64,000 nt of DNA from a virus: the IMG/VR virus record IMGVR_UViG_3300021090_000723, positions 1 through 64,000 of that record. One strand, given 5' to 3'. This document shows positions 48,286-60,300 of this stretch, in pieces (position 1 is the first letter of the stretch; the number at the start of each line of letters is the position of its first letter). The notes under the pieces are model-generated. The model did not search any database, was not told the DNA's origin, and worked only from the letters and a program-made list of their open reading frames with translations. The translations under genes were made by a program, and so were the position numbers.

Positions 48286-48381
48286 ATGGCGATGCGCCTG
48301 TACGATTATTGCGTGTGGCTCGTGTTCGGGGGACCGCTTCTTCTCGCGATCCTGGTCGGCCTCATCAAGGTCTTCGCCTAG
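48286..48381 (+). CDS. 31-aa hydrophobic peptide antisense to the late operon
   Basis: MAMRLYDYCVWLVFGGPLLLAILVGLIKVFA; single TM; overlaps the last codons of the giant gene. Confidence 0.4.
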   Translation: MAMRLYDYCVWLVFGGPLLLAILVGLIKVFA

Positions 48382-51300
48382 TCCGCTCCAGATATTCGGC
48401 GTTGAACATGCGGATGATACGTTCTTCCGCCTCGTTCAAGATCCGCACCTGCTCGTTGTAGCGCGGCCTCGCCATCCTGCCCTGCTCCAACGCCATCTTC
48501 GCCTGAGCGCGCGATGCCCTGATCTCGGACAGTTCCGTCCTGGCGTTGTTCGCGTCGTTGTAGAGCGAGAGCATTGCCCGATTCTCCTGGACGAAGCCAC
48601 GAGCCTCAGGTCTCCGGCCCTCGCGCTGGTAGTCCCTGGCATAGGCGCGCGACTGCTCGATCTTGTTGATCCGCTCGTAGAACGTCGCCTTGTCGATCCA
48701 GGGCGGCTTGGATGTGACGACGCGGCGCACGAAGGGGATGTCGTTGAACGTGATCGTGCTGGTCGGGTCGGCAAACTTCATGGGCAGATCGAGGAAGTTG
48801 CGCTCGTAGAACGTGCCTGCGGCGCCCCAGGCCACGCCGAACCCATAGTCCAGCCACTCGGGCGAAATCTCGATCAGTCCGGGCTCGACACCCGTTCCGC
48901 CCGAGGCCGTGCTCAGGAAGTCTGTGACCGCTTTGTAGGCGGGCGAGACCGAATTCCAATAGCGCTGGCTGTTCGGGACCTGTGGGCCGTACTGGGACTG
49001 CTCCGGCGCGATCGGCCGCCCGGCATAGTCCTTGTTCATGAAGAGATCGACGACCGGGTCCATGGTGGTGGGCGCGATCATGTTGAGCAGGTTCTGCGCG
49101 CCGCCAACCGGGTTGAACGAGTCCATGATGGTGATCGCGAGGTTGCCGGCCGACTCCAGCGGGTCCTTGCCACGCATAACCTCGGCGATCGAGCGGCCGA
49201 CGCCGTAGAAGATGTTGTAGCCGTAGGGCAGCGGGATCTTCGCCGCCACTCCGCCCTCGCTCGGCGTCATGACGATCAGGTTCCGGCTCTTATCGAACGG
49301 CGTCACCTTGTCGTAGAGCAGCTGGCCGTCATCGTCCTCATCGCTGACAAAGGCGTTGAGGAAGTCCAGCAGGAAGCCGGTCAGCACCGCGAACGCTGCA
49401 ACCTTGCGCACGCGCGGGGACTTCCAGGCGGTGAGCAACGTCGCGGTGCCTTGGATGCTCGCGTTATAGAACAGGTAGAGGCTGTTCATCAGCGGGCCCC
49501 ACGAGCCGCGGCGGTTGAAGTTCACCGTCAGGTTCTTGGCGAGAGACGCCGCCTTCGCCGGGGTGAAGCCACGCTCGCGCGCGTTCTTGTAGGCCGAGAG
49601 ACGGATGGCGTTTTCCACCCCGATGTTCGTGTTCTCGATGATGCGGCCGAGCGTCTTCATCGCCATGATCGGGTTGAGCTTGGACGTGCCGATCTCCCGC
49701 ATCTGACCGTCCAGGCGCTTCCGTAGCTCGAGCACGTCTTCCATCTGGTTGAAGTAGACGCGCCCGCCGTTCTCGCGGAACTCCTGGGCCCAACGGTCCC
49801 ACTCGGCCTGGTCCTTCGCCATCCACGGCATCAGGGTTTTGCCCGGCTCCGCCTTGAACGCGCTGCGGCTCGATGCCACCAGCGCCTTGCGGTAGTCCTT
49901 CACCGTTCCCTTGGTGATGCCCTTGATGTCGCCGTGCGCCTGGATGTTCGAGAGCGCGGTCTGCGCATCGCGGAAGGCGTTCGTGATGACGAACTCCGGG
50001 TTGAGCGTCGTGTTCACGTGGCTGAGAATCCGGTTGATCGCGCCAAAATTCCGGATCAGCAGGCTGATCTGATCCTGCCCCAGGCCCTTCAGGCCCTGGG
50101 CGAGATCGCGCGCGACCGGGTTGTTGCGGTTGAACGTGATGCGATGCTCTTGCCCGTCGATCTTGGTGGACAACGTGTACGGAGCATCTTCGGCGAGGAT
50201 GCGCCGGACCGGCCAGTATTGGACCTCCTGGCGGGCCTTGATCCACACCGGCCGCATCGCGACCTTGTCGACCTTCCAGAAGTTCTCGTTGGGCGCGGCC
50301 TTCGCCAGTTCGTAGATCGCGTTGCCGATACGATTGTTCTCTCCACGGATGATCGCTTCCTCGGCCTGCATGAACGCATAGGCCAGGATGTCACGCGCTG
50401 GCGACTGACGGCCGAAGGCACGGTGCGATTCCTTGCCCTTGACGTCGAAGCCCTTGCCCGGGCGCGGGCGGTCGGCCTCGACCTCAGGGTCCAGTTCGGC
50501 CACGCCGCGCAGCGGGACATAGTCGCGATAGGTGGCGCGCCAGGCCTCGGCCTGCTCTTCCGACATAAGACCCGCTTCGACGCGCGTGTTCAGCGCGAAG
50601 GCCAGGACGTCGTCGACCATGCCTGCCAGGGCGTCGAAGTCCGCGCGCCGGCCGGTCTTATCGACCTCGTCCATGATGCCGCGCGCATCTTCATCGCTCA
50701 TGCCCGAGCCAGCGATGCCCTCTTCCCGGAACTTCGGGTTGATCTCATTGATCCGCGCGTTGCGTTCCGGCGCGTGCCGGGCATAGAGGAACGTCTCAAG
50801 CTCTTCCCGGCTGATGCCGCGCTCGTGCATGGCGAGCACAAGCGGCCGGATTTGGCGCTCGAACAGATCCTCCAGCTTCGCGCCCTTGCGGCCGGACGAC
50901 AGTTCCTCGGCCAGATAGGCGTTCTCTTCCTCCGTGAGCGGACGACCCAGCATCTGCTCGATCGCCGCCTGCATGCGCGCGACCTTGAGATAGCGGTCCT
51001 GGAAGCCCACGCGCCACTTGTCGAACGACGCATTGATGGCGGAGAGCGAAGCGGCGCCCTTCAGCCGCTCCATCAGGGAGAGGTTCGAGTTGCGGAGATA
51101 GTCCACCACGCTCGGCTGCGGGGAGTCGGTGAACATCGTGAAGGCGTTCGCGCCGGGTGGCATGCGGCGGGCGAACAGGCCCTGGCCCTCCATCACGGAC
51201 TCGCGCATGGCAGGCGTCACGTCGAGCGAGTGCACGTCGATCACGCCCTGCTTCTTCTGTGGGTGGGTCTCGGCCACGGTCCACGACGGCTCCGATTCCT

Positions 51301-54300
51301 TGCCGGTGTCGATCTTGGTGGTCCCGACCTTCGCGTCCCACTTCTTGGCGTACCGGTTCAGGAACTGGGGCACGATCCTGTCGTAGAAGCCCTTCATGCC
51401 CTCGCCGCCGACGGTCAGGTCGAGGCCGGAGATTTCACGCACGCGCACACCAAGTCCGGCTGACCGCCCCTCTACTGGTGTTACAGCCAACAGCTTATCG
51501 GCAAGCTCCGCTCCGACCAGTTCCGCCAAGTCATCGCGCGACTCGATCTGACGATTGATGGCCTCCTCATTGCGCTTCCCGTAGGCAATGAGGTGCCCAC
51601 GTTCGAATGGCCCGTCCATCCGCGGGCGCCCAATCCCGCCGCTGACGTTGTCTGTCAGCCGGAGGCTGTTGACGTGCTTGGCAAGATTGTACCGCTCAGC
51701 CTGCTGCGCACCGGTCGTCCAGGCGAGGCGGTCGTAGCCGTTCTCGGCGGCGTAGCGCAGCATCCGCTTGAGGGCGATCTCGTGCCAGGTCGACTTGAAC
51801 GGCGCGTCCGGGACGCCGGTGCGCTTCTCGATCGCCTCGCCTTCCTTGATCGTCCAATTCGTCGTGTCCATCGGCGCTTGATCGTCACGATTCCACGCCG
51901 GCCGCCGCCCATGCTTATCGCGGATGAATTCCTGCGCCTGGTCCAGCGTCGGTCGAGTGCCTACCAGTTCGCCTTGATCGTCGAAGATTGAAAAGACCGG
52001 CGAACGGGTTTCCTTGACGCTATAGCCCTGGCGTCTGCCCTTCTGATGCCAATCGCTCTGGATCTCCTCGATGAAGAGCACCCTCTTGCCGTCGGCGTCT
52101 GCGCGATCCTTGAAGCGCACATGGGCCAGGATATTCGCCTCATCGAAGTGACCTGAGCGGAACTGGCCGCTGAGCGCATCGATCGCGAGGCTCCTGTCGC
52201 CGGGATACCGGCGCCGCATGACATCGATCCAATGCGCGTCGTTTGGGCCCTCGTATTTTTTCGTGACGCTATTGAGCACGATCGGGTCATCCCAGGTCCC
52301 AACCTTATGGTCGCCGTAGAAGACCGTGACGTCGCCCTGGGTGGTCGACCGACGATTGCGCTCGATGCGGACCTTGGCCGGGTCGAAGGGCACGCCGATC
52401 TGCGGCAGCGTCAGCAGCAGTTCGCGGTAGTTCTCGCCGCCAGGGAGGGTTTGGGACTCAAACTTGGTGGCGCCGCCCTCGGCGACGATCCCGGCATCAC
52501 GATGGATCGCTTCACGCGCTTCGATGAAGTCCCCGAAGTCGCCCAACTCTCGACCAGCCCGGATGGCATTTACGCGAGTAACCACTCCGCGCTGGTCGTA
52601 ATGGAACGTGACGCTAGCATCGTCAGCGTCAAAGGCCATTTCCGAATAATACCGTTGACCCTCAGGTTGGATGGTCCTTTCTTCATCGGGGAGCCAATCC
52701 TCGATATTCTCCGGATAGGGTCCCTCATCGTCGCCAGGCGCGCGGCCCTTCTCGACCTCCTCGATCTGGACGTTGTTCTCGCGGATGAAGTCGAGCAGCG
52801 CCTGCTTCGTGACCGGTCCCTGCTGGGACTCGAGCCATTCGTTCACGCCGGTCCACTCGGTCTCGTCCTTCGTGATGCCGCGCGCGTTCTTGATGAAGGC
52901 CTGCCACTGGATGCCCGACGCCTTCTCCTGCTTGGAGGCCTCGATCGTGCGCGCGAGCGTCGAGAAGAACGGCGCCGGCGGCTGTGGCTTCAGGGCGAAC
53001 TTCGCCTCGGACCTGGTGGGCCCGGCCTTGCCGCGCTTGCCGATCCTGCCGGACTCGATGCGCTTGAAGATGTCCTCTGGCGTCTGGAAGCCGCGGCCGC
53101 GGAAGAAGTTGCGCAGGCCCTCGAAGAAATTGCGCACGCGCTGGAGAACCTTTGTCGCCAGGCCTGCCTTCGCGAATTCGTTGCTAGGCTCATAGTTCTG
53201 CGCCGCGAACGCGATCGTTTCCTCGGTCTGGACGTCGGGCTTGTAGTATTTGCCGACGATATCGAACGTCCGTTTCCACTTGTCTTTTGCGGCCGCTTCG
53301 AGTGTGGCCCACTCTGACTTGGTGAAGAAGCCGAGATTGCGCAGGCCGTGGATGACCTCATGCGTGATGGTGCCGAACGGGTCCTTGGTATCGAGCGCAA
53401 TGGTGATGAGGTTTTTTGTGATGTCGAAGTGGCCGTCGGCCTCGTGGCCCTCAGGGTCCGCAATCGCATCGGCCACGCGCACGGCGAGCGGAAGGTTGCG
53501 ATTGACCAGATAGGCGCGGAGATCGGCGGCCAGCTGCTCGCGCTTCGCCTCGAACTCGGGGCTGAATGTGAAGGTGACGCCGTCGCCGGTCTCGATGACC
53601 GGTGGCGCCTGCGGGAGCCTTAGTCTTTCAAGGCCTCTTCCAACGCCTTCTGGGCGCGCGCCCTCGCCTGCTCCACCTCTGGGCTCGACGGCAAGTCCTT
53701 GGTCCTCGCCAAGAATCTCCGCAATGCCATCGGCGAACTGAGTGGGGGCGGTTCCTCGATCAGATACATTGACGACTCCAATCGCTTTCAGCGGCGAGGC
53801 GATGGCCTCGGCCCCGGCTTGCGCCATCGTATCGAACGTGGCCGCAAGGCTTTCCGGAACAACAACGGATGAACGGTAATCGATGAGGCCGGCGCGCGCT
53901 AGACCCACCGCGAAGTTATGGCTGAAGTTGGCGACGGCGAGGTTGCGATCGAGGCCCCGCTCGCGGATCAGCGAACGGCCGACGCGGCCCTGGGCGTTCT
54001 GCGATTCTTGCAGCATCTTGTTCAGGATGTCGGAGGGGCTGGACCACAGCGTCAGGTCCAGATCGGCGAAGGCCCGGCGCGTCTCGGGGGTGAGACGGGC
54101 GGCGTGCCACTGCCCCTCCGTGGTGTGGGCGATCATCCAGTCCAAGCCAGGGAGATCCAGCAACGTCAGGTCTGCGAAGGACAGGCCGTATGGCATCGTG
54201 TGGTTATGGTGGAACACGATCCGCGCATCTGGCTTGCTGAGCGCATCCTCGATCTTGCCCCGGAGGTTCACATATGTGTCCTTGCCGGAGGTCTCCGCCG

Positions 54301-57300
54301 CGATGACCGTCTGGGTGGCCGGGTCGTAGGCCACGGCCGCTTCGGTCTTGGTGCGCTCACCGAAGGCGCGGAGCCAGTCGCCGATCGCCACGTTCACGGC
54401 TGCTGGCGTCTTGGCCTTCTTCTTCGCGACGAATTTCCCGAGGTCGTCGGCCAGGTCCGAATTGCCCTCCACGATCCGGCGCGCGAGCATGCCCTCGTCC
54501 CTCGGCGGCCGGGCGGGCGGCGCCAAGCCCAGGCCTTCGCCAGGCGCCTCGCTCAGGATGAAGCCGGCGGAGCGGCGCGGCGGGAGGTCCGGCTCGGGCG
54601 CCCCGGCCACGGGCTGGGGATCGGCCTCGATGAGGCCAAGCGCCTGGTCGATCTTGCGCTGACGCTTCAGCGCCGCCTGGTATTGGTCCTCGCGCTCGAA
54701 CGGGACCTTGACCAGTTCCTTGAAGTCCACGAGCTTCTTCTTCGCCGTGTCGATCTTGGCCTGGCGATAGTCGATCTCGCCTGGGCGGCTCTTGAAGAAG
54801 TTCTCGATGCGGCTGATGGCGCCCAACTTGAGCGACTGGAGATCGAGCTCCACCTTGTCGGTCATCTTGCCGTGGATCACGGCCTGCGGCTGGTAGTAGC
54901 CGTCGACCTCAACCGAGATCGGGAAGCCGTACATCTTGCCGATCGGGATGTCCTCGATCTCGGCGTTGCGCTTCCGGCCCTGGGCCTCGTTCTTGGACTT
55001 CTGGAGGTTCCAGGCCTTCTCGATGATGTCGGCCAGCGCCTTGGACGCATCGACGCGCTTCTCATAGACCGTGCCCAGGATGGTGTAGTGCGGCTTGTCC
55101 TTGCGTTCGAGGTAGGCGGCGTGGTCGGCTTTGACCCGCCCGCGCGCCTCTTCCATCCCGGCGATCTCGCCCGGCAGGCGGTGGATCTGCCACTCCATTT
55201 CGTGGATGTTGTCGTAGTGCGCACCGCGCAGGCGCGAGAGACGATCGACGTCCGAGTCCGCCTTCGCCTTGTCCAGGATCAGCGGGTTGCCCGCGGCGAG
55301 GGCCTTGGCCTCGGCGAACGACAGCACCTGCTCATCGATGTCTTCGGCCTCGCGGACCGAGGGATCGCCGCGCTTGATCTGGTTGATGAAGCGGGCCTTG
55401 CGCTCGACGGTCTGCCACATATAGGCGTCGAACGATCCTTCGGTGACGTAGCGGAAGAGGTCGATCTCTTCGTTCGTGTTGCCCTGACGCTCGATGCGGC
55501 CCTCGCGCTGCTCGATGTCCGATGGGCGCCACGAGGGGTCGACGTGGTGGAGCGCCTTCAGGCGGTCCTGCACGTTCGTGCCGATGCCCATCTTCTCGGT
55601 CGAGCCCAGCAGGATGCGCTTGCGGCCGGCGCGCACGTCGGCGAAGAGGTTCGCCTTCTTCTGATCGGTGTTGGCGTCCTGGACGAACGCGACATCGTTC
55701 GCGTTCACGCCCTTCTTGACCAGTTCCTCCTTGATGTCGCGATAGATGCTGTAGGCCACGTTCGACGGGACCGACATATCGCAGAAGATGATCTGGGTGT
55801 GCTTTTCCTTGGCGCCCGCCTTGTAGATGCGCGCCGCGTTGCTCGCGACCTCGGAGGCCTTCCGGACCTTTTCCTTCCTCGCGGCCGGGTCCACCACACG
55901 CAGATCGAGCGATGCCTTGCGGCCGTCGGTCGAGATCAGCAGCATGTTGTCTTCGTCGGGCGTCACCTCGCGCTTGCGGACCGCCTCGGCGCGCTCGCCG
56001 ATCTCCGCGATGTAGGCCTTGAGCGCATCGCTCGCGGGCACGATGATGGTCTTGGGCCCGCCGCCGCTGATCTTCGGGAGCTTCACCTGGCCGGTCGCGA
56101 TCAGGTCGTCCTTGCTCACCAGGTCCGAGAACTGCCGGTACATCGAGATCAGTTCGGGGATGTTGCGGAAGCGCGCGAAGCGGGTCTTCAGCATCGCCTT
56201 TCCGCCCTCGGGCGTGATCTCGGCTTGCGTGACGGTGTCGCCGAAGGTCGAGGCCCAGGCGTCGAAGTGCGAGAGGCCGCGCTCGGCCAGCCCGCGCGGC
56301 TGGAGATAGCGCTGCATCGTGTACATTTCGGCCATCGAGTTCGAGATCGGCGTGCCGGTCATGAACATGAGGCCGCGGCCCGGCGTCATCTTGTCGATGT
56401 ACTTGGTCTTCAAATAGAGATCGAACGCCCGCTGGCTCGACGGCGGGTTCATGTTCGTGATCTTCGTCGCGAATTCCAGGTTCTTGAACAGGTGGGCTTC
56501 ATCGACAAAGATGCCGTCGACCCCCATTTCCTCGAACGACAGGCCCCGGTCCTTGTCCTTGGCCTGCATCAGTTCGCGGAGCTTTTCCTCACGGCGCTTC
56601 TTCGCGGCTTCCAGCTGCTTGACCGTCGGGCTGCGGCCCCCGGTGTCGGTCTCGCGCGCGGCACGGATCAGGTCCGCATATTCGGCGATCTCGTCGCGGA
56701 TATAGTCAGCCTGGAACTTGGCCGACATGCCGACGCGCTCGAAACTGGAGTGCGTCATGATGATCGCGTCCCAGTTTCCGGCCGCCGCACGGGCGACGAA
56801 GCGACGGCGATTGTCGCCAGCGAAGGCGCGCTCGTCCGCCACCAGGATGCTGGCGTTCGGGTACAGCTGCATGAACTCGCGGCTGAACTGCTCCAGCATG
56901 TGGTTCGGGACGGAGAACAGCGGCTTGCTCAGCAGGCCTATGCGCTTGGCCTCCATGGCGGCCGCGATGGCCGTGAACGTCTTGCCGGCGCCCACCAGGT
57001 GGTCGAGCAGCGTGTTGCCCGAGACCAGGTAGCGCCAGACGGCCTTCTTCTGGGTGGAGCGCAGTTCGATCGTGCTGCTGGAGCCAGGAAGCGTCAGGTG
57101 ATCGCCGTTGAAGGTGGCGACCCGGAGGTTGTTGAAGTTGTCGTTGTAGAAGCGGGACAGCCGCGCACCGCGCTCTGGGTCCTTCCAGATCCACTTGGAG
57201 AAGCGCTCCTTGATGTCGTTCTGCTTTTCCTGCGCCACGATGGTGGCGTTCATGTCCGTGTGGGTCTTGCCCTCGGAGTCCTGCCAGGAAATGACGGTCG

Positions 57301-60300
57301 ACTTCTGGTTAAGCGCATCGCGGATGAGGTCGATGCCGCGGCGCGCGATCGACTTGCCCTCGGCGCGCGAGGTCGTCCAGTTGACCGACCAGGTCTGGGT
57401 GTTGGGCGCGGTGCCCTCCTGGGCAATGCGCACGTGCCAGGTCGCTTCCTTCGGCACGTATTCAACGATGGCCTCGGTCTCGAGCAGTTCGGAAATGAAC
57501 CCCTCGACGTCCGAGTTGGGAATCCACGGCGTGCCCATGCGCACCGCGATCTGAGACGGCTTCAGATCGACTGGCTGGACGACTTCGAGCGCCTTGACGT
57601 TCTCGGCCCACTCGGGCTCGCCCTTGGCAGCGTCACGCGCGAAGGCCAACTTTCCGCGCACGTTGCCCGAGAGATAGACCTCGGACGGCTCGTAGGCGCC
57701 GGTCGCCGGGTTCTTGAAGATGCGGCCCTTGAGTTCGTTGAGGAACGTGCTCGGCTGACGGCCCAGGATTTTTGCCATGTAGGGCACGTCGACTATGCCC
57801 TTCATGTTCATGGACGCGATCAGCGCCTCGTCCGGCGTGTTCACGCGGAGGATTTCGCGCGTCGGCTCGACCACGCGATCGGTGAAGATCGGGCCTTTGA
57901 TGCCCTCGTTCTTCTCTTCATCGAAGCGCTCGAGCGCGGAGACCAGCGCCGCGTCCGGATCGTCACGGAACGCCAGCATGTTCGGGTAGCGGCGGTATTC
58001 GCGCACCTCACCGTCCGGCATCGTGCGCCGGCTGATCTGAACCTGGTTGATGTAGCCGAACGCCTTGACGAACTGGGCGTAGAGTTTCCCCAGTTCCTTC
58101 TGCGGCGCGACCCACGGGGCCGTGCCCTTGCCTTCCCACTCGCCGCGCTGCGCGGTCAAGATCTCGCGGGCCTTGTCGCGGAGCCTGATGAGCAGGCGCA
58201 CGCGCCCGGCCTGGCCGTCGGAGAGTTCGACCGGCACGGAGGATTGCAGCACGCGCTGGAACAGCTTGCCGTCACGTTCGAAGAAGGCGTTGTCCTTCAC
58301 CGTGTCGGGCGGCGGCGCCAGGTCATCGTATGTGTCCACGTCCCCGGCCTCGGGATCGAAGCGGAGCGCGGACTTCTCCATCATGGCCTGGACGGCATTG
58401 GCGATCTTCTCGCGCAGGCCCGTTGCCGTTCCGGTAACGGTGTATTCGTCCTCGCGGTACATGCCGCGCGTGACGGCGTTCGTCCCCAGGATCATGTTGG
58501 GGTTGTCTTTGAAATACTGATTGACCGTCGCCGGGCTCGTGCCGACGCGGAACTCCTTGGCCTCCAGCCAATCCGGCTTCCCGGCAGGCTCGCCCTCCTT
58601 CCGCTTACGGATGAACAGGATGTCCGTGACGACTTGGGTCCCGGCGTTCTCCTTGAAGGCGGTGTTGGGGAGACGGATGGCGCCGATCAGGTCGCCGCCG
58701 GCGTCCCGGATCATGGTGCGCGCGGTCTTGTCCTGCGAGTCCATCGTGTAGCGGCTGGTCACGAGCGCAAGCACGCCGCCAGGTTTGACCAGCTTCAGGC
58801 TCTTGAAGATGAAGTAGTTGTGCAGGCTGAGCGGGCGGCCCTTATTGTACATCTTGTCGGCCGGGCGAATGTCGCCGAACGGCACGTTGCCGATGACAAG
58901 GTCCACGCTGTCTTCCGGAAGCGCGGTGTCCTCGAAGCCCTGCACGAAGATGCGCGCCTCGGGGTAGAGCGCTCGCGCGATCTTGCCGGTGACGTCGTCA
59001 AGCTCCACGCCGATGAACTTCGGATCGCTGCCCTTCGGGCGCATGCCCATGAAGTTGCCGATGCCCATGCCGGGTTCGAGCACGTTGCCCGAGCCGGTGA
59101 AGCCGAGTTCGGTCACGCCGTCCCAGATGCCGCGAACCACATCCTGGCTGGTGTAGTGCGCGTTGATGGTGGTCGCGCGAGCCGACGCGAACTGCTCCGG
59201 CGTCAGCATGGCCTTCAGCTGCTCGCGGTAGGGGATCAGGCCGTAGTCGAGCCCGCGGCCCTCATCGAAGATCTTGGCGAGGCCCGTGGCGCCCCAGCCC
59301 ACGTAATGGGCAAGCTGCTCCTGGTCCTCACGGCTGGCGAGTTGCCCGCCCTTCTCCAGGTCGAGAGCGACCCGGATGGCTTCGATGTTCTTGACGATGC
59401 GCTGGGCTGGACTGCCGGTGGCATAATCGGCGTCTTCAGCGATGCGGAAGTTTAGTCCTCGTATCCCCCGCTTGGCCCGATCCCCGAGGCTTCCCTCTCG
59501 CTCATCGGGAGATACTCCCTCAGGGCGTCCGACTCCGCCATCAGGAGGGCGCTCCGCTCCAGCTTGATCCGTCTCTCCAGAGGCTCGTCCTGGCTCACTT
59601 GCGGAAGTTGGCTGTTGACCCAGTTCGCTATCGATTCCGATAGGTCCTGGACCCTCTGCTCCAGCTTCCCCTCCGCCTTCAGGCCCGCGAACTCCTGTGG
59701 TCGGTGCACCCGCAGGTGCCCTTCCACCTTGCTCCGGTAGCTTTCCGGGCTGACCTTTTGCACGTTTTTCCCTTTCGAGCTCGGCCCAGCGCTTCGGAAT
59801 ATCGATCTTTTTGAGCGCTTCTTCAACTGCCTGCTTGGAGTCGGGCAGCGGCGTGTAGGTCTTTTCCTTGAGCGATCCGTCCTCGTTCCACTCCAGCTGG
59901 TCGAGCAGGCCGCGCCACATCAGGGCGAAATTGGCGCGCTCTTCCTCGGCGGGATAGGGCGTGCCGCGATAGCCGGCTTCCTTGGTCGTCTGGCCTTCCG
60001 CCACCCAGCCATTGACCAGGTAGGGCGAGGTCTGCCCCTTGGCGGCCAGTTCATCGTAGATGAAGGACTCGAACGAGCGCGCCCACAGTTCCTCGGGCCG
60101 CACCCAGTATTTGCCAAGCTCTTGGGCGTTGCGCTTGAACTTGGTCGTGAGCTTCGCGCTCCACCCCTCGTTCTGCCAAAGGTGGTCCACGTACTGCTCG
60201 GCGGTCTTGAGCGGGCCCAGGCCTTGCCTGCCCCGGATGTGCGACCGGCCGGTGAGCAGATTGTCGACCATCTTGATCGCACCCTCCACGTCCCAGGTGT

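Follow-up and report, generated by a model that had tools for sequence, protein, structure and literature searches.

A Probable Overprinted Partner Gene of a JAB-like Domain within a Giant Phage Polyvalent-Protein Gene

We analyzed a 64,000-nucleotide stretch of viral DNA (positions 1 to 64,000 of IMG/VR record IMGVR_UViG_3300021090_000723, hereafter the window), in which a giant gene for a DarB-like large polyvalent protein contains a 49-codon open reading frame (ORF) in its +1 frame, immediately after the region encoding a JAB-like domain. This nested ORF, at positions 53769-53620 on the minus strand, is in our judgment a genuine overprinted gene and a partner of the JAB-like domain; it is probably still expressed, its product probably binding the domain to hold it inactive or acting as its escort. 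Sequence comparison places the ORF in a conserved small-protein family, links that family strictly to the JAB-like domain, reveals exchange of domain and ORF as one cassette, and detects selection on the nested frame in relatives. The two features that define the ORF are as follows.

53620-53769, minus strand: nested +1-frame gene of 49 codons plus TAA, member of a small-protein family of the form (Y/L)LI(D/E)xPxPF...W..F...LP...helix
53776-53779, minus strand: Shine-Dalgarno (SD)-like GGAG, 6 nucleotides (nt) upstream of the nested ATG

Results

Position and Codon Composition of the Nested ORF

The minus-strand sequence around the nested start reads tGGAGtcgtcaATG, in which GGAG (53779-53776) is followed by a 6-nt spacer and the ATG (53769-53767). 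The GGAG itself is supplied by a rare main-frame Gly codon, GGA. The stop codon is TAA at 53622-53620, and the frame is +1 relative to the giant ORF. An earlier note on this DNA, made from the letters alone, had described a +1 ORF with a GGAG-N6-ATG start; that description is exact, and our translation is identical to the 49-amino-acid (aa) peptide it gave. Over the same bases the main frame encodes ...VSDRGTAPTQFADGIAEILGEDQGLAVEPRGGAGEGARPEGVGRGLERLRL, with VSDRGTAPTQFADGIAEILGE and then a G/E/R-rich stretch. Promoter, terminator, and Rfam searches of positions 53000-54500 gave no match. The ORF is the sole copy of its family in the virus record, which is 88% complete.

Codon usage in the main frame is anomalous across this span. 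A- or T-ending codons make up 27 of its 52 main-frame codons, including five GGA, three AGA, and CTA, whereas in the rest of the giant gene AGA accounts for 1% of the codons for Arg and CTA for 1% of those for Leu. These counts uphold the rare codons that the earlier note had reported in the G/E/R-rich linker. GC content by codon position is 0.64/0.44/0.86 in the giant gene, 0.78/0.56/0.46 in the main frame of the span, and 0.56/0.47/0.82 in the +1 frame of the span; it is the +1 frame that shows the composition pattern typical of the giant gene. When both frames are scored with the gene's own codon table, +1 outperforms the main frame at just two loci in 15.6 kb, one of which is the nested span. 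GC content at third codon positions (GC3) in the main frame is 0.46 here versus 0.8-0.9 in the adjoining JAB part of the same cassette, which argues, as far as a single sequence can, that constraint on +1 second positions has been long-lasting.

A Conserved Family of Small Proteins

By sequence comparison, the nested ORF belongs to a conserved, previously undescribed family of small proteins with the consensus (Y/L)LI(D/E)xPxPF..5..W..F...LP...helix, whose members have no match in Pfam, NCBIfam, or PHROGs. We compared the DNA of three distant homologues of the domain, from Agrobacterium phage Atu_ph08, Sinorhizobium phage PBC5, and the alphaproteobacterial contig G002:C101. All three show a drop in GC3 past the domain, spanned by an open, ATG-started +1 frame. 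The +1 peptides read MYLIEEPPPL...RRFL in the window, VYLIDPPSPF...WEQFL in G002, and GLIDEPSPW...WRQHL followed by LLKQARQIIREK in PBC5, with which Atu_ph08 has KQARQIIREK in common. A conserved main-frame Arg is encoded by the rare codon CGA in all three, and the main-frame codons CGA, ATT, and CTT are what the +1 frame requires for (I)D/E and FL; in the window, these rare codons yield E, F, and L in the +1 frame. The conserved nested ORF of PBC5 lies at L013:2099-2302. The 2001 annotation of this phage (L013, AF448724.1) contains many shadow ORFs (orf24-orf30) within or antisense to the giant gene and leaves the +1 ORF unlisted; the giant gene is now called DarB-like antirestriction in RefSeq.

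Small genes with the family motif also occur outside any longer ORF. Free-standing copies include MPRYLIEEPNPF...EW..F in L011, MPMLLIDEPSPF...EW..F in L009, a GTG-started copy in L008, and the annotated 79-aa protein WP_012977995.1 on Azospirillum pAB510d. A hidden Markov model (HMM) of four free-standing members was run against the six-frame ORFs (1642 in number, each 30 aa or longer) of the window, L001, L002, L013, and L007, and returned exactly the nested +1 ORFs: the G002 copies at E values of 7e-9 to 1e-4, Atu_ph08 at 4e-6, PBC5 at 8e-6, and the window at 6.5e-4, with noise beginning at 0.67. HMMs built without the window sequence aligned with its ORF end to end at E values of 8.6e-5 (8 members) and 1.9e-6 (32 members). 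It was the lone significant match among 1106 six-frame ORFs of the window, the next match to the 32-member HMM having an E value of 0.72. A tblastn search of phages and plasmids with a free-standing member gave no match. In most of the relatives first recovered, an SD-like motif lies 5-10 nt upstream of the start.

An AlphaFold2 (AF2) model of the 49-aa product, built from an 8-sequence alignment, has a predicted local distance difference test (pLDDT) score of 86 and consists of a coil at residues 1-12 and helices at residues 13-23 and 30-48.

Selection on the Two Frames

In relatives, substitution patterns indicate purifying selection on the nested frame and none on the main frame across the shared bases. 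The four paralogous units of G002 give ratios of nonsynonymous to synonymous substitution rates (dN/dS) of 0.16-0.27 in the nested frame and 0.98-2.4 in the main frame; in one of these units (copy 3) the main frame contains a stop while the +1 ORF is intact. Between PBC5 and Atu_ph08, in both of which the ORF is truly nested, the corresponding ratio of proportions of differences (pN/pS) is 0.58 in the nested frame, at 42% aa identity, and 1.18 in the main frame, at 23%. The next domain, used as a control for this pair, shows the reverse (0.20 in the main frame versus 1.32 in the nested register). Across 11 non-saturated pairs of nested viral copies, pN/pS is 0.29-0.55 in the nested frame versus 0.79-2.45 in the main frame; these pairs are non-independent, and all agree. 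Their differences concentrate at nested third positions.

Together with the HMM matches, this selection supports the claim of the earlier note that a hidden gene lies inside the giant frame. The frame-specific codon and dN/dS analysis proposed there came out in its favor for nested-frame selection in relatives and for the codon pattern of the window, the pairs that include the window copy itself being saturated.

Linkage to the JAB-like Domain

The window ORF begins directly after the folded JAB-like part of the giant protein, on the same strand, and its placement is alike in all relatives. Free-standing copies lie directly downstream of stand-alone or MuF-fused JAB-like genes, with a gap or overlap of a few codons, which is where the earlier note had suggested looking for homologues. 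Among 401 alphaproteobacterial genomes, strong small-protein matches are confined to four, those with an intact JAB-like gene. We also examined 59 IMG/VR loci retrieved with a degenerate DNA pattern of the +1 motif. A significant small-protein ORF is present in 24, and a JAB-like domain was found in 24/24 of these and in 0/35 of the others. This co-occurrence, with that in the 401 genomes, supports the link between ORF and domain drawn in the earlier note. In a sample assembled from the JAB side, all eight intact JAB-like genes are accompanied by the small ORF (window, PBC5, Atu_ph08, G002, G057, G225, G358, and Azospirillum).

Two arrangements occur among the 24 viral loci. In 16, the small ORF is nested in a giant ORF that continues for 193-1040 codons beyond the small stop; in all 16, and in PBC5 and Atu_ph08 too, the ORF is in the +1 frame, as it is in the window. 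In the other eight (L027, L032, L039 with its 5′ end cut, L048, L063, L068, L083, and L084), it is free-standing, a few codons from the stop of a JAB-like protein of ~540-640 aa in which the JAB-like domain is C-terminal. Phage_Mu_F (PF04233) was detected by Pfam in 6/6 of these eight loci that were run. On a tree of the JAB domain, nested and free-standing arrangements cluster, requiring three changes versus ~10 for shuffled labels; the tree is weak at its deep nodes, and the branch of the window is long.

At G002:C101:10462-12795 (loci L007 and L024), four tandem units each consist of a JAB-like 3′ part and an intact nested small ORF. The units are separated by differing ORFs (115 aa and 174 aa), an arrangement that resembles the arrays of orphan modules in polymorphic toxin loci. 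In G002, the complete gene (668 aa) carries a PBECR3 nuclease domain.

The JAB-like Domain and the Main-Frame Linker

The main frame contributes two features to this region.

53774-54403, minus strand: JAB/MPN-like domain of the giant protein, with an E...HHNH...S..D motif (HHNH..S..D at ~54211-54170)
53596-53769, minus strand: main-frame tail motif and G/E/R-rich linker, overprinting the nested gene and predicted to be disordered

The E...HxH...S..D motif and the modeled fold place the neighboring domain in the JAB/MPN (JAMM) superfamily. In the domain alignment (A1), H66, N67, H68, and D78 are invariant, and E21 and S75 are near-invariant. The AF2 model has pLDDT >85 for residues 1-210, and the top ~30 Foldseek matches are JAMM1, AMSH, Sst2, Rpn11, and RadC, with probabilities up to 0.98 and E values of only 0.025-0.2. 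The window domain has no match in Pfam even at an E value of 10; its relatives match RadC (PF04002) and Prok-JAB (PF14464) only below threshold (E values of 0.003-0.06), and Pfam scans of the window domain and its relatives gave no match to DUF4329 (Tox-JAB-2). A relatedness search with the domain segment across viral and genome contigs gave no related loci, and a JAB-motif DNA pattern scan returned two chance matches only; the domain (A1) and family (A4) alignments are too divergent for pattern scans.

Main-frame residues 212-262 have pLDDT values of 34-65, a drop that coincides with the overlap of the nested gene. The motif DRxAxPVRxxDGIAxILG, which spans the first half of the ORF, is common to 28 protein-level homologues of the upstream domain. 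Given that free-standing genes carry the small-protein family motif, this tail motif of the main frame is LIDxPxPF...W..FL as it reads in the -1 frame.

The Host Gene and Exchange of the Cassette

The coordinates of the host gene and of the exchangeable piece are as follows.

48365 to beyond 64000, minus strand: host gene for a DarB-like large polyvalent protein, running off the window; 5766 aa in the full record
53596-54403, minus strand: exchangeable cassette of JAB-like domain and nested gene, replaced by a different module in the closest relative

The virus record is 104.9 kb long, and its own giant protein comprises 5766 aa. Pfam detects InPase, LPD1, an Eco57I-type methyltransferase, ResIII/SNF2, Helicase_C, and LPD38, a domain set that identifies a DarB-like "large polyvalent protein" as described by Iyer et al. 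2017 (PMC5512222). Phage homologues of the giant gene are annotated as DarB-like antirestriction. On the opposite (plus) strand, positions 53918-59455 form an open frame of 1845 aa, antisense to the giant gene and presumably a shadow ORF that reflects high GC content.

The closest relative of the giant gene, in Ga0193708_1000050 (locus L001), shares 81% protein identity over the alignable gene. Its protein aligns to the domain segment until residue 52 and resumes at residue 323, with an unrelated module of ~184 aa in between; this replacement module has normal GC3 and no nested ORF. The nested stop lies 27 nt from the resumption of homology, and the swapped piece (54403-53596) holds the domain and the entire nested gene. 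Movement of the pair as one cassette, as the earlier note had proposed, is thus supported by the module swap of the closest relative.

Elsewhere, nucleotide identity between the two giant genes is mostly 80-98%. The C-terminal third (48365-53100) contains several further indels or module swaps (594 gapped codons in total), with low-identity windows near 52500 and 52100. Patches of near-identity between the two genes suggest mosaic recombination.

Discussion

A Proposed Mechanism

In the mechanism that we propose, the ancestral state would be a JAB-like effector gene followed by a tightly coupled small gene. In giant polyvalent genes, the effector frame reads on through the small gene in the -1 register, such that the DNA of the small gene also encodes a G/E/R-rich linker, predicted to be disordered, that leads to the next domain. 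The small protein would be made from its own SD-ATG within the giant mRNA; a helical hairpin would follow its short and extended LIExPxP motif at the N-terminus. In the producing cell, it would bind its cognate JAB-like domain and keep it inactive or escort it, in the fashion of a toxin and its immunity protein, and its N-terminal LIDxPxPF segment would be predicted to touch the metal site. Domain and partner are inherited and exchanged as a single cassette. For the phage studied here, we infer translation from the GGAG-N6-ATG signal, binding of the product to the domain, and an inhibitory role.

Of the roles that the small protein might have, the likeliest by analogy is to bind or inhibit its cognate JAB-like effector. 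An inhibitory, immunity-like function is suggested by MuF polymorphic toxins, which have downstream small ORFs that are putative immunity genes (Jamet et al. 2017, PMC5576092), and by Tox-JAB clades with their immunity proteins, namely the Tox-JAB-1/Imm65 and Tox-JAB-2/Imm-NTF2-2 pairs (Zhang et al. 2012, PMC3482391).

Alternative Explanations

Our initial reading was that the ORF reflects chance or the composition of the G/E/R-rich linker. It had leaned on the main-frame motif of the 28 homologues, from which only the main frame seemed to matter, and on the equally low GC3 of a second linker (59779-59492), and it was abandoned once the DNA of relatives showed the +1 peptide to be conserved. 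A frameshift-fusion scar is likewise contradicted by the selection tests and the free-standing homologues. Several properties of the ORF do weigh against a gene: its length is unremarkable, as the giant gene contains 13 more +1 ORFs that start with ATG and reach 49 codons or more and has a mean +1 stop-to-stop gap of 48 codons, and synonymous recodings that keep the main-frame protein leave the span stop-free in 78% of cases, rendering the absence of stops uninformative. The same recodings give an ATG-started ORF of at least 49 aa in 12% of cases, and one with an SD in 1-5%. Queried alone, the 49-aa peptide has no match in Pfam, PHROGs, NCBIfam, the ESM Atlas, or a homologous-protein search at 26-86 aa. 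What exceeds chance, on the sequence evidence, is the codon anomaly and, decisively, homology to the conserved family; the single significant family-HMM match among all the window's ORFs, in syntenic position, already contradicts a chance ORF within a GC-rich gene, which we regard as exceedingly improbable. Alternatively, the A/T-ending codons could form a rare-codon cluster that causes a translational pause at the domain boundary, with the open +1 frame and its conservation as by-products. The low GC3 of the second linker and of the equivalent linkers of Atu_ph08, PBC5, and G002 would fit such a pause, but it leaves unexplained the free-standing homologues of the +1 peptide, the substitutions at +1 third positions (pN/pS 0.16-0.55 while the main frame is neutral), and the G002 copy 3 with its main-frame stop and intact +1 ORF. 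This explanation is also already contradicted, and we consider it highly improbable.

Other observations count against an intact, functional gene in this particular phage. No member of the family is more divergent or shorter than the window copy, in which Leu replaces both the conserved Phe after PxP and the conserved Trp six residues later, which lowers confidence in full function, not in descent; LIEEPxP, F19-L20, and the L-P positions are retained. Comparisons of dN/dS between the window and its relatives are saturated, the best cassette homologue being 36% identical, and searches for protein homologues found no close relative that carries the window's cassette. Among the 24 viral contigs, a loose regular expression detected an SD-like motif in only roughly half. 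These loci were themselves retrieved with the +1 motif, and the frequency of the ORF among JAB-like domains is therefore not measurable from them. Foldseek on the 49-aa model was uninformative. The window ORF might then be a fossil that descends from the partner gene, expression and selection having been lost in this lineage and the DNA now serving as linker only, as its divergence, the two Leu substitutions, the 78% expectation of an open frame, and the lack of a close relative for a selection test would allow. We consider this unlikely: the low GC of main-frame third positions relative to the rest of the cassette implies long-lasting constraint, the ATG and GGAG-N6 are kept, the replacements of F and W by L are conservative for core positions and the AF2 model is confident, nested copies elsewhere are under selection, and the record contains no other copy able to supply the partner. 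It is also possible, if doubtful, that the gene is real and has a different role, as a cofactor or activator, an escort in assembly or packaging, or a substrate of the JAB-like enzyme. Strict linkage and coupling suit an obligate partner of whatever kind, and virion proteins made late in a lytic cycle have little need of self-protection. The activity of RadC-type JAB domains is not settled (PMC5512222, PMC3482391). Against this, the arrangement of capsid-delivered MuF or DarB-like carrier, effector, and small ORF matches that of MuF polymorphic toxins and their putative immunity genes (PMC5576092), and each JAB toxin clade has a dedicated immunity protein (PMC3482391). On balance, an overprinted partner gene that is still expressed appears to us the probable explanation.

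A Second Low-GC3 Linker

The linker at 59779-59492, between LPD1 and the methylase, has a GC3 of 0.30-0.40 and is spanned by a +1 open frame at 59452-59826 on the minus strand, the +1 ORF itself being at 59763-59452. The counterpart of this frame in L001 is open and has the same GAC-TAA end, with 84.5% aa identity versus 80.8% for the main frame. Differences from L001 by main-frame codon position number 14/5/11 in this linker, compared with 8/5/35 and 30/18/42 in its flanks, and third-position identity at unchanged residues is 0.94-1.0 versus a gene mean of 0.81. The ORF matches Pfam TnpV only below threshold (E value of 0.011) and has no match in the 401 alphaproteobacteria. Its conservation pattern suggests that it is possibly a second overprinted gene. 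Polyvalent-protein linkers might, more speculatively, be a general hiding place in which each effector domain may bring a small regulator in an alternative frame, a generalization that we advance only tentatively.

Relation to Known Systems

Small genes embedded out of frame are familiar from other systems. In the phage lambda Rz/Rz1 spanins, a small +1-frame gene is wholly embedded in a larger gene and the two products cooperate, and both embedded and separated arrangements exist among their relatives. The window's family shares the +1 embedding and the coexistence of the two arrangements; it differs in that Rz/Rz1 function in lysis and belong to another family, while the host gene here is 15-17 kb long and the embedded gene forms an inter-domain linker. 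In Bacillus subtilis, comS is an out-of-frame gene of ~46 codons with its own start inside srfAB. It is likewise a small gene within a giant multidomain gene, but comS, a regulator, has no relation to the domain around it, whereas the window's gene is tied to the adjacent domain and travels with it.

Comparison with the MuF toxins and Tox-JAB pairs gives a similar mixture. An effector on a virion-delivered carrier is followed by a small dedicated ORF in both, and the catalytic E, HxH, S, and D are present. This polymorphic-toxin layout, a small ORF right after a C-terminal effector on a delivery module, is found in eight relatives with MuF and a JAB-like domain, and in the window the domain and small gene are carried inside a DarB-like carrier. 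In contrast to those systems, the small gene of the window lies within the effector's own ORF in another frame, its domain matches neither DUF4329 nor a Pfam JAB model at threshold, and its small protein is unrelated to Imm65 or NTF2. The InPase, LPD1, methyltransferase, SNF2 helicase, and LPD38 of the window gene are shared with P1 DarB-like and other large polyvalent proteins (Iyer et al. 2017, PMC5512222), from which the window differs in presenting a JAB-like domain in phage-type proteins. The words "overlapping", "linker", and "frameshift" are absent from the main text of that paper, and a full-text literature search for polyvalent proteins together with overlapping genes surfaced only a paper on an unrelated Sinorhizobium podovirus. 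Embedded +1 genes and toxin-immunity adjacency are known; what is new is a partner gene preserved as an alternative frame of a polyvalent-protein linker.

Implications

The finding adds a conserved protein family that is invisible to gene callers because it sits inside a longer ORF, and it explains a linker whose deviant codon usage was puzzling. Protein searches with the JAB-like module return a conserved C-terminal motif, and this motif is the out-of-frame shadow of another protein. If linkers of this kind do prove to be a general hiding place, giant phage genes would hold a hidden layer of small proteins that neither annotation pipelines nor domain databases capture. Some of the "conserved linker motifs" would then be images of another frame, and the second-linker +1 ORF would be another instance. 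A candidate dedicated binder or inhibitor would provide a testable handle on the unsettled activity of RadC-like JAB effectors, and dual-coding constraints would be relevant to recoding or codon-optimizing such phage genes. For the polyvalent anti-defense proteins themselves, the arrangement points to a route of domain accretion in which the frame crosses a partner gene and the partner is kept.

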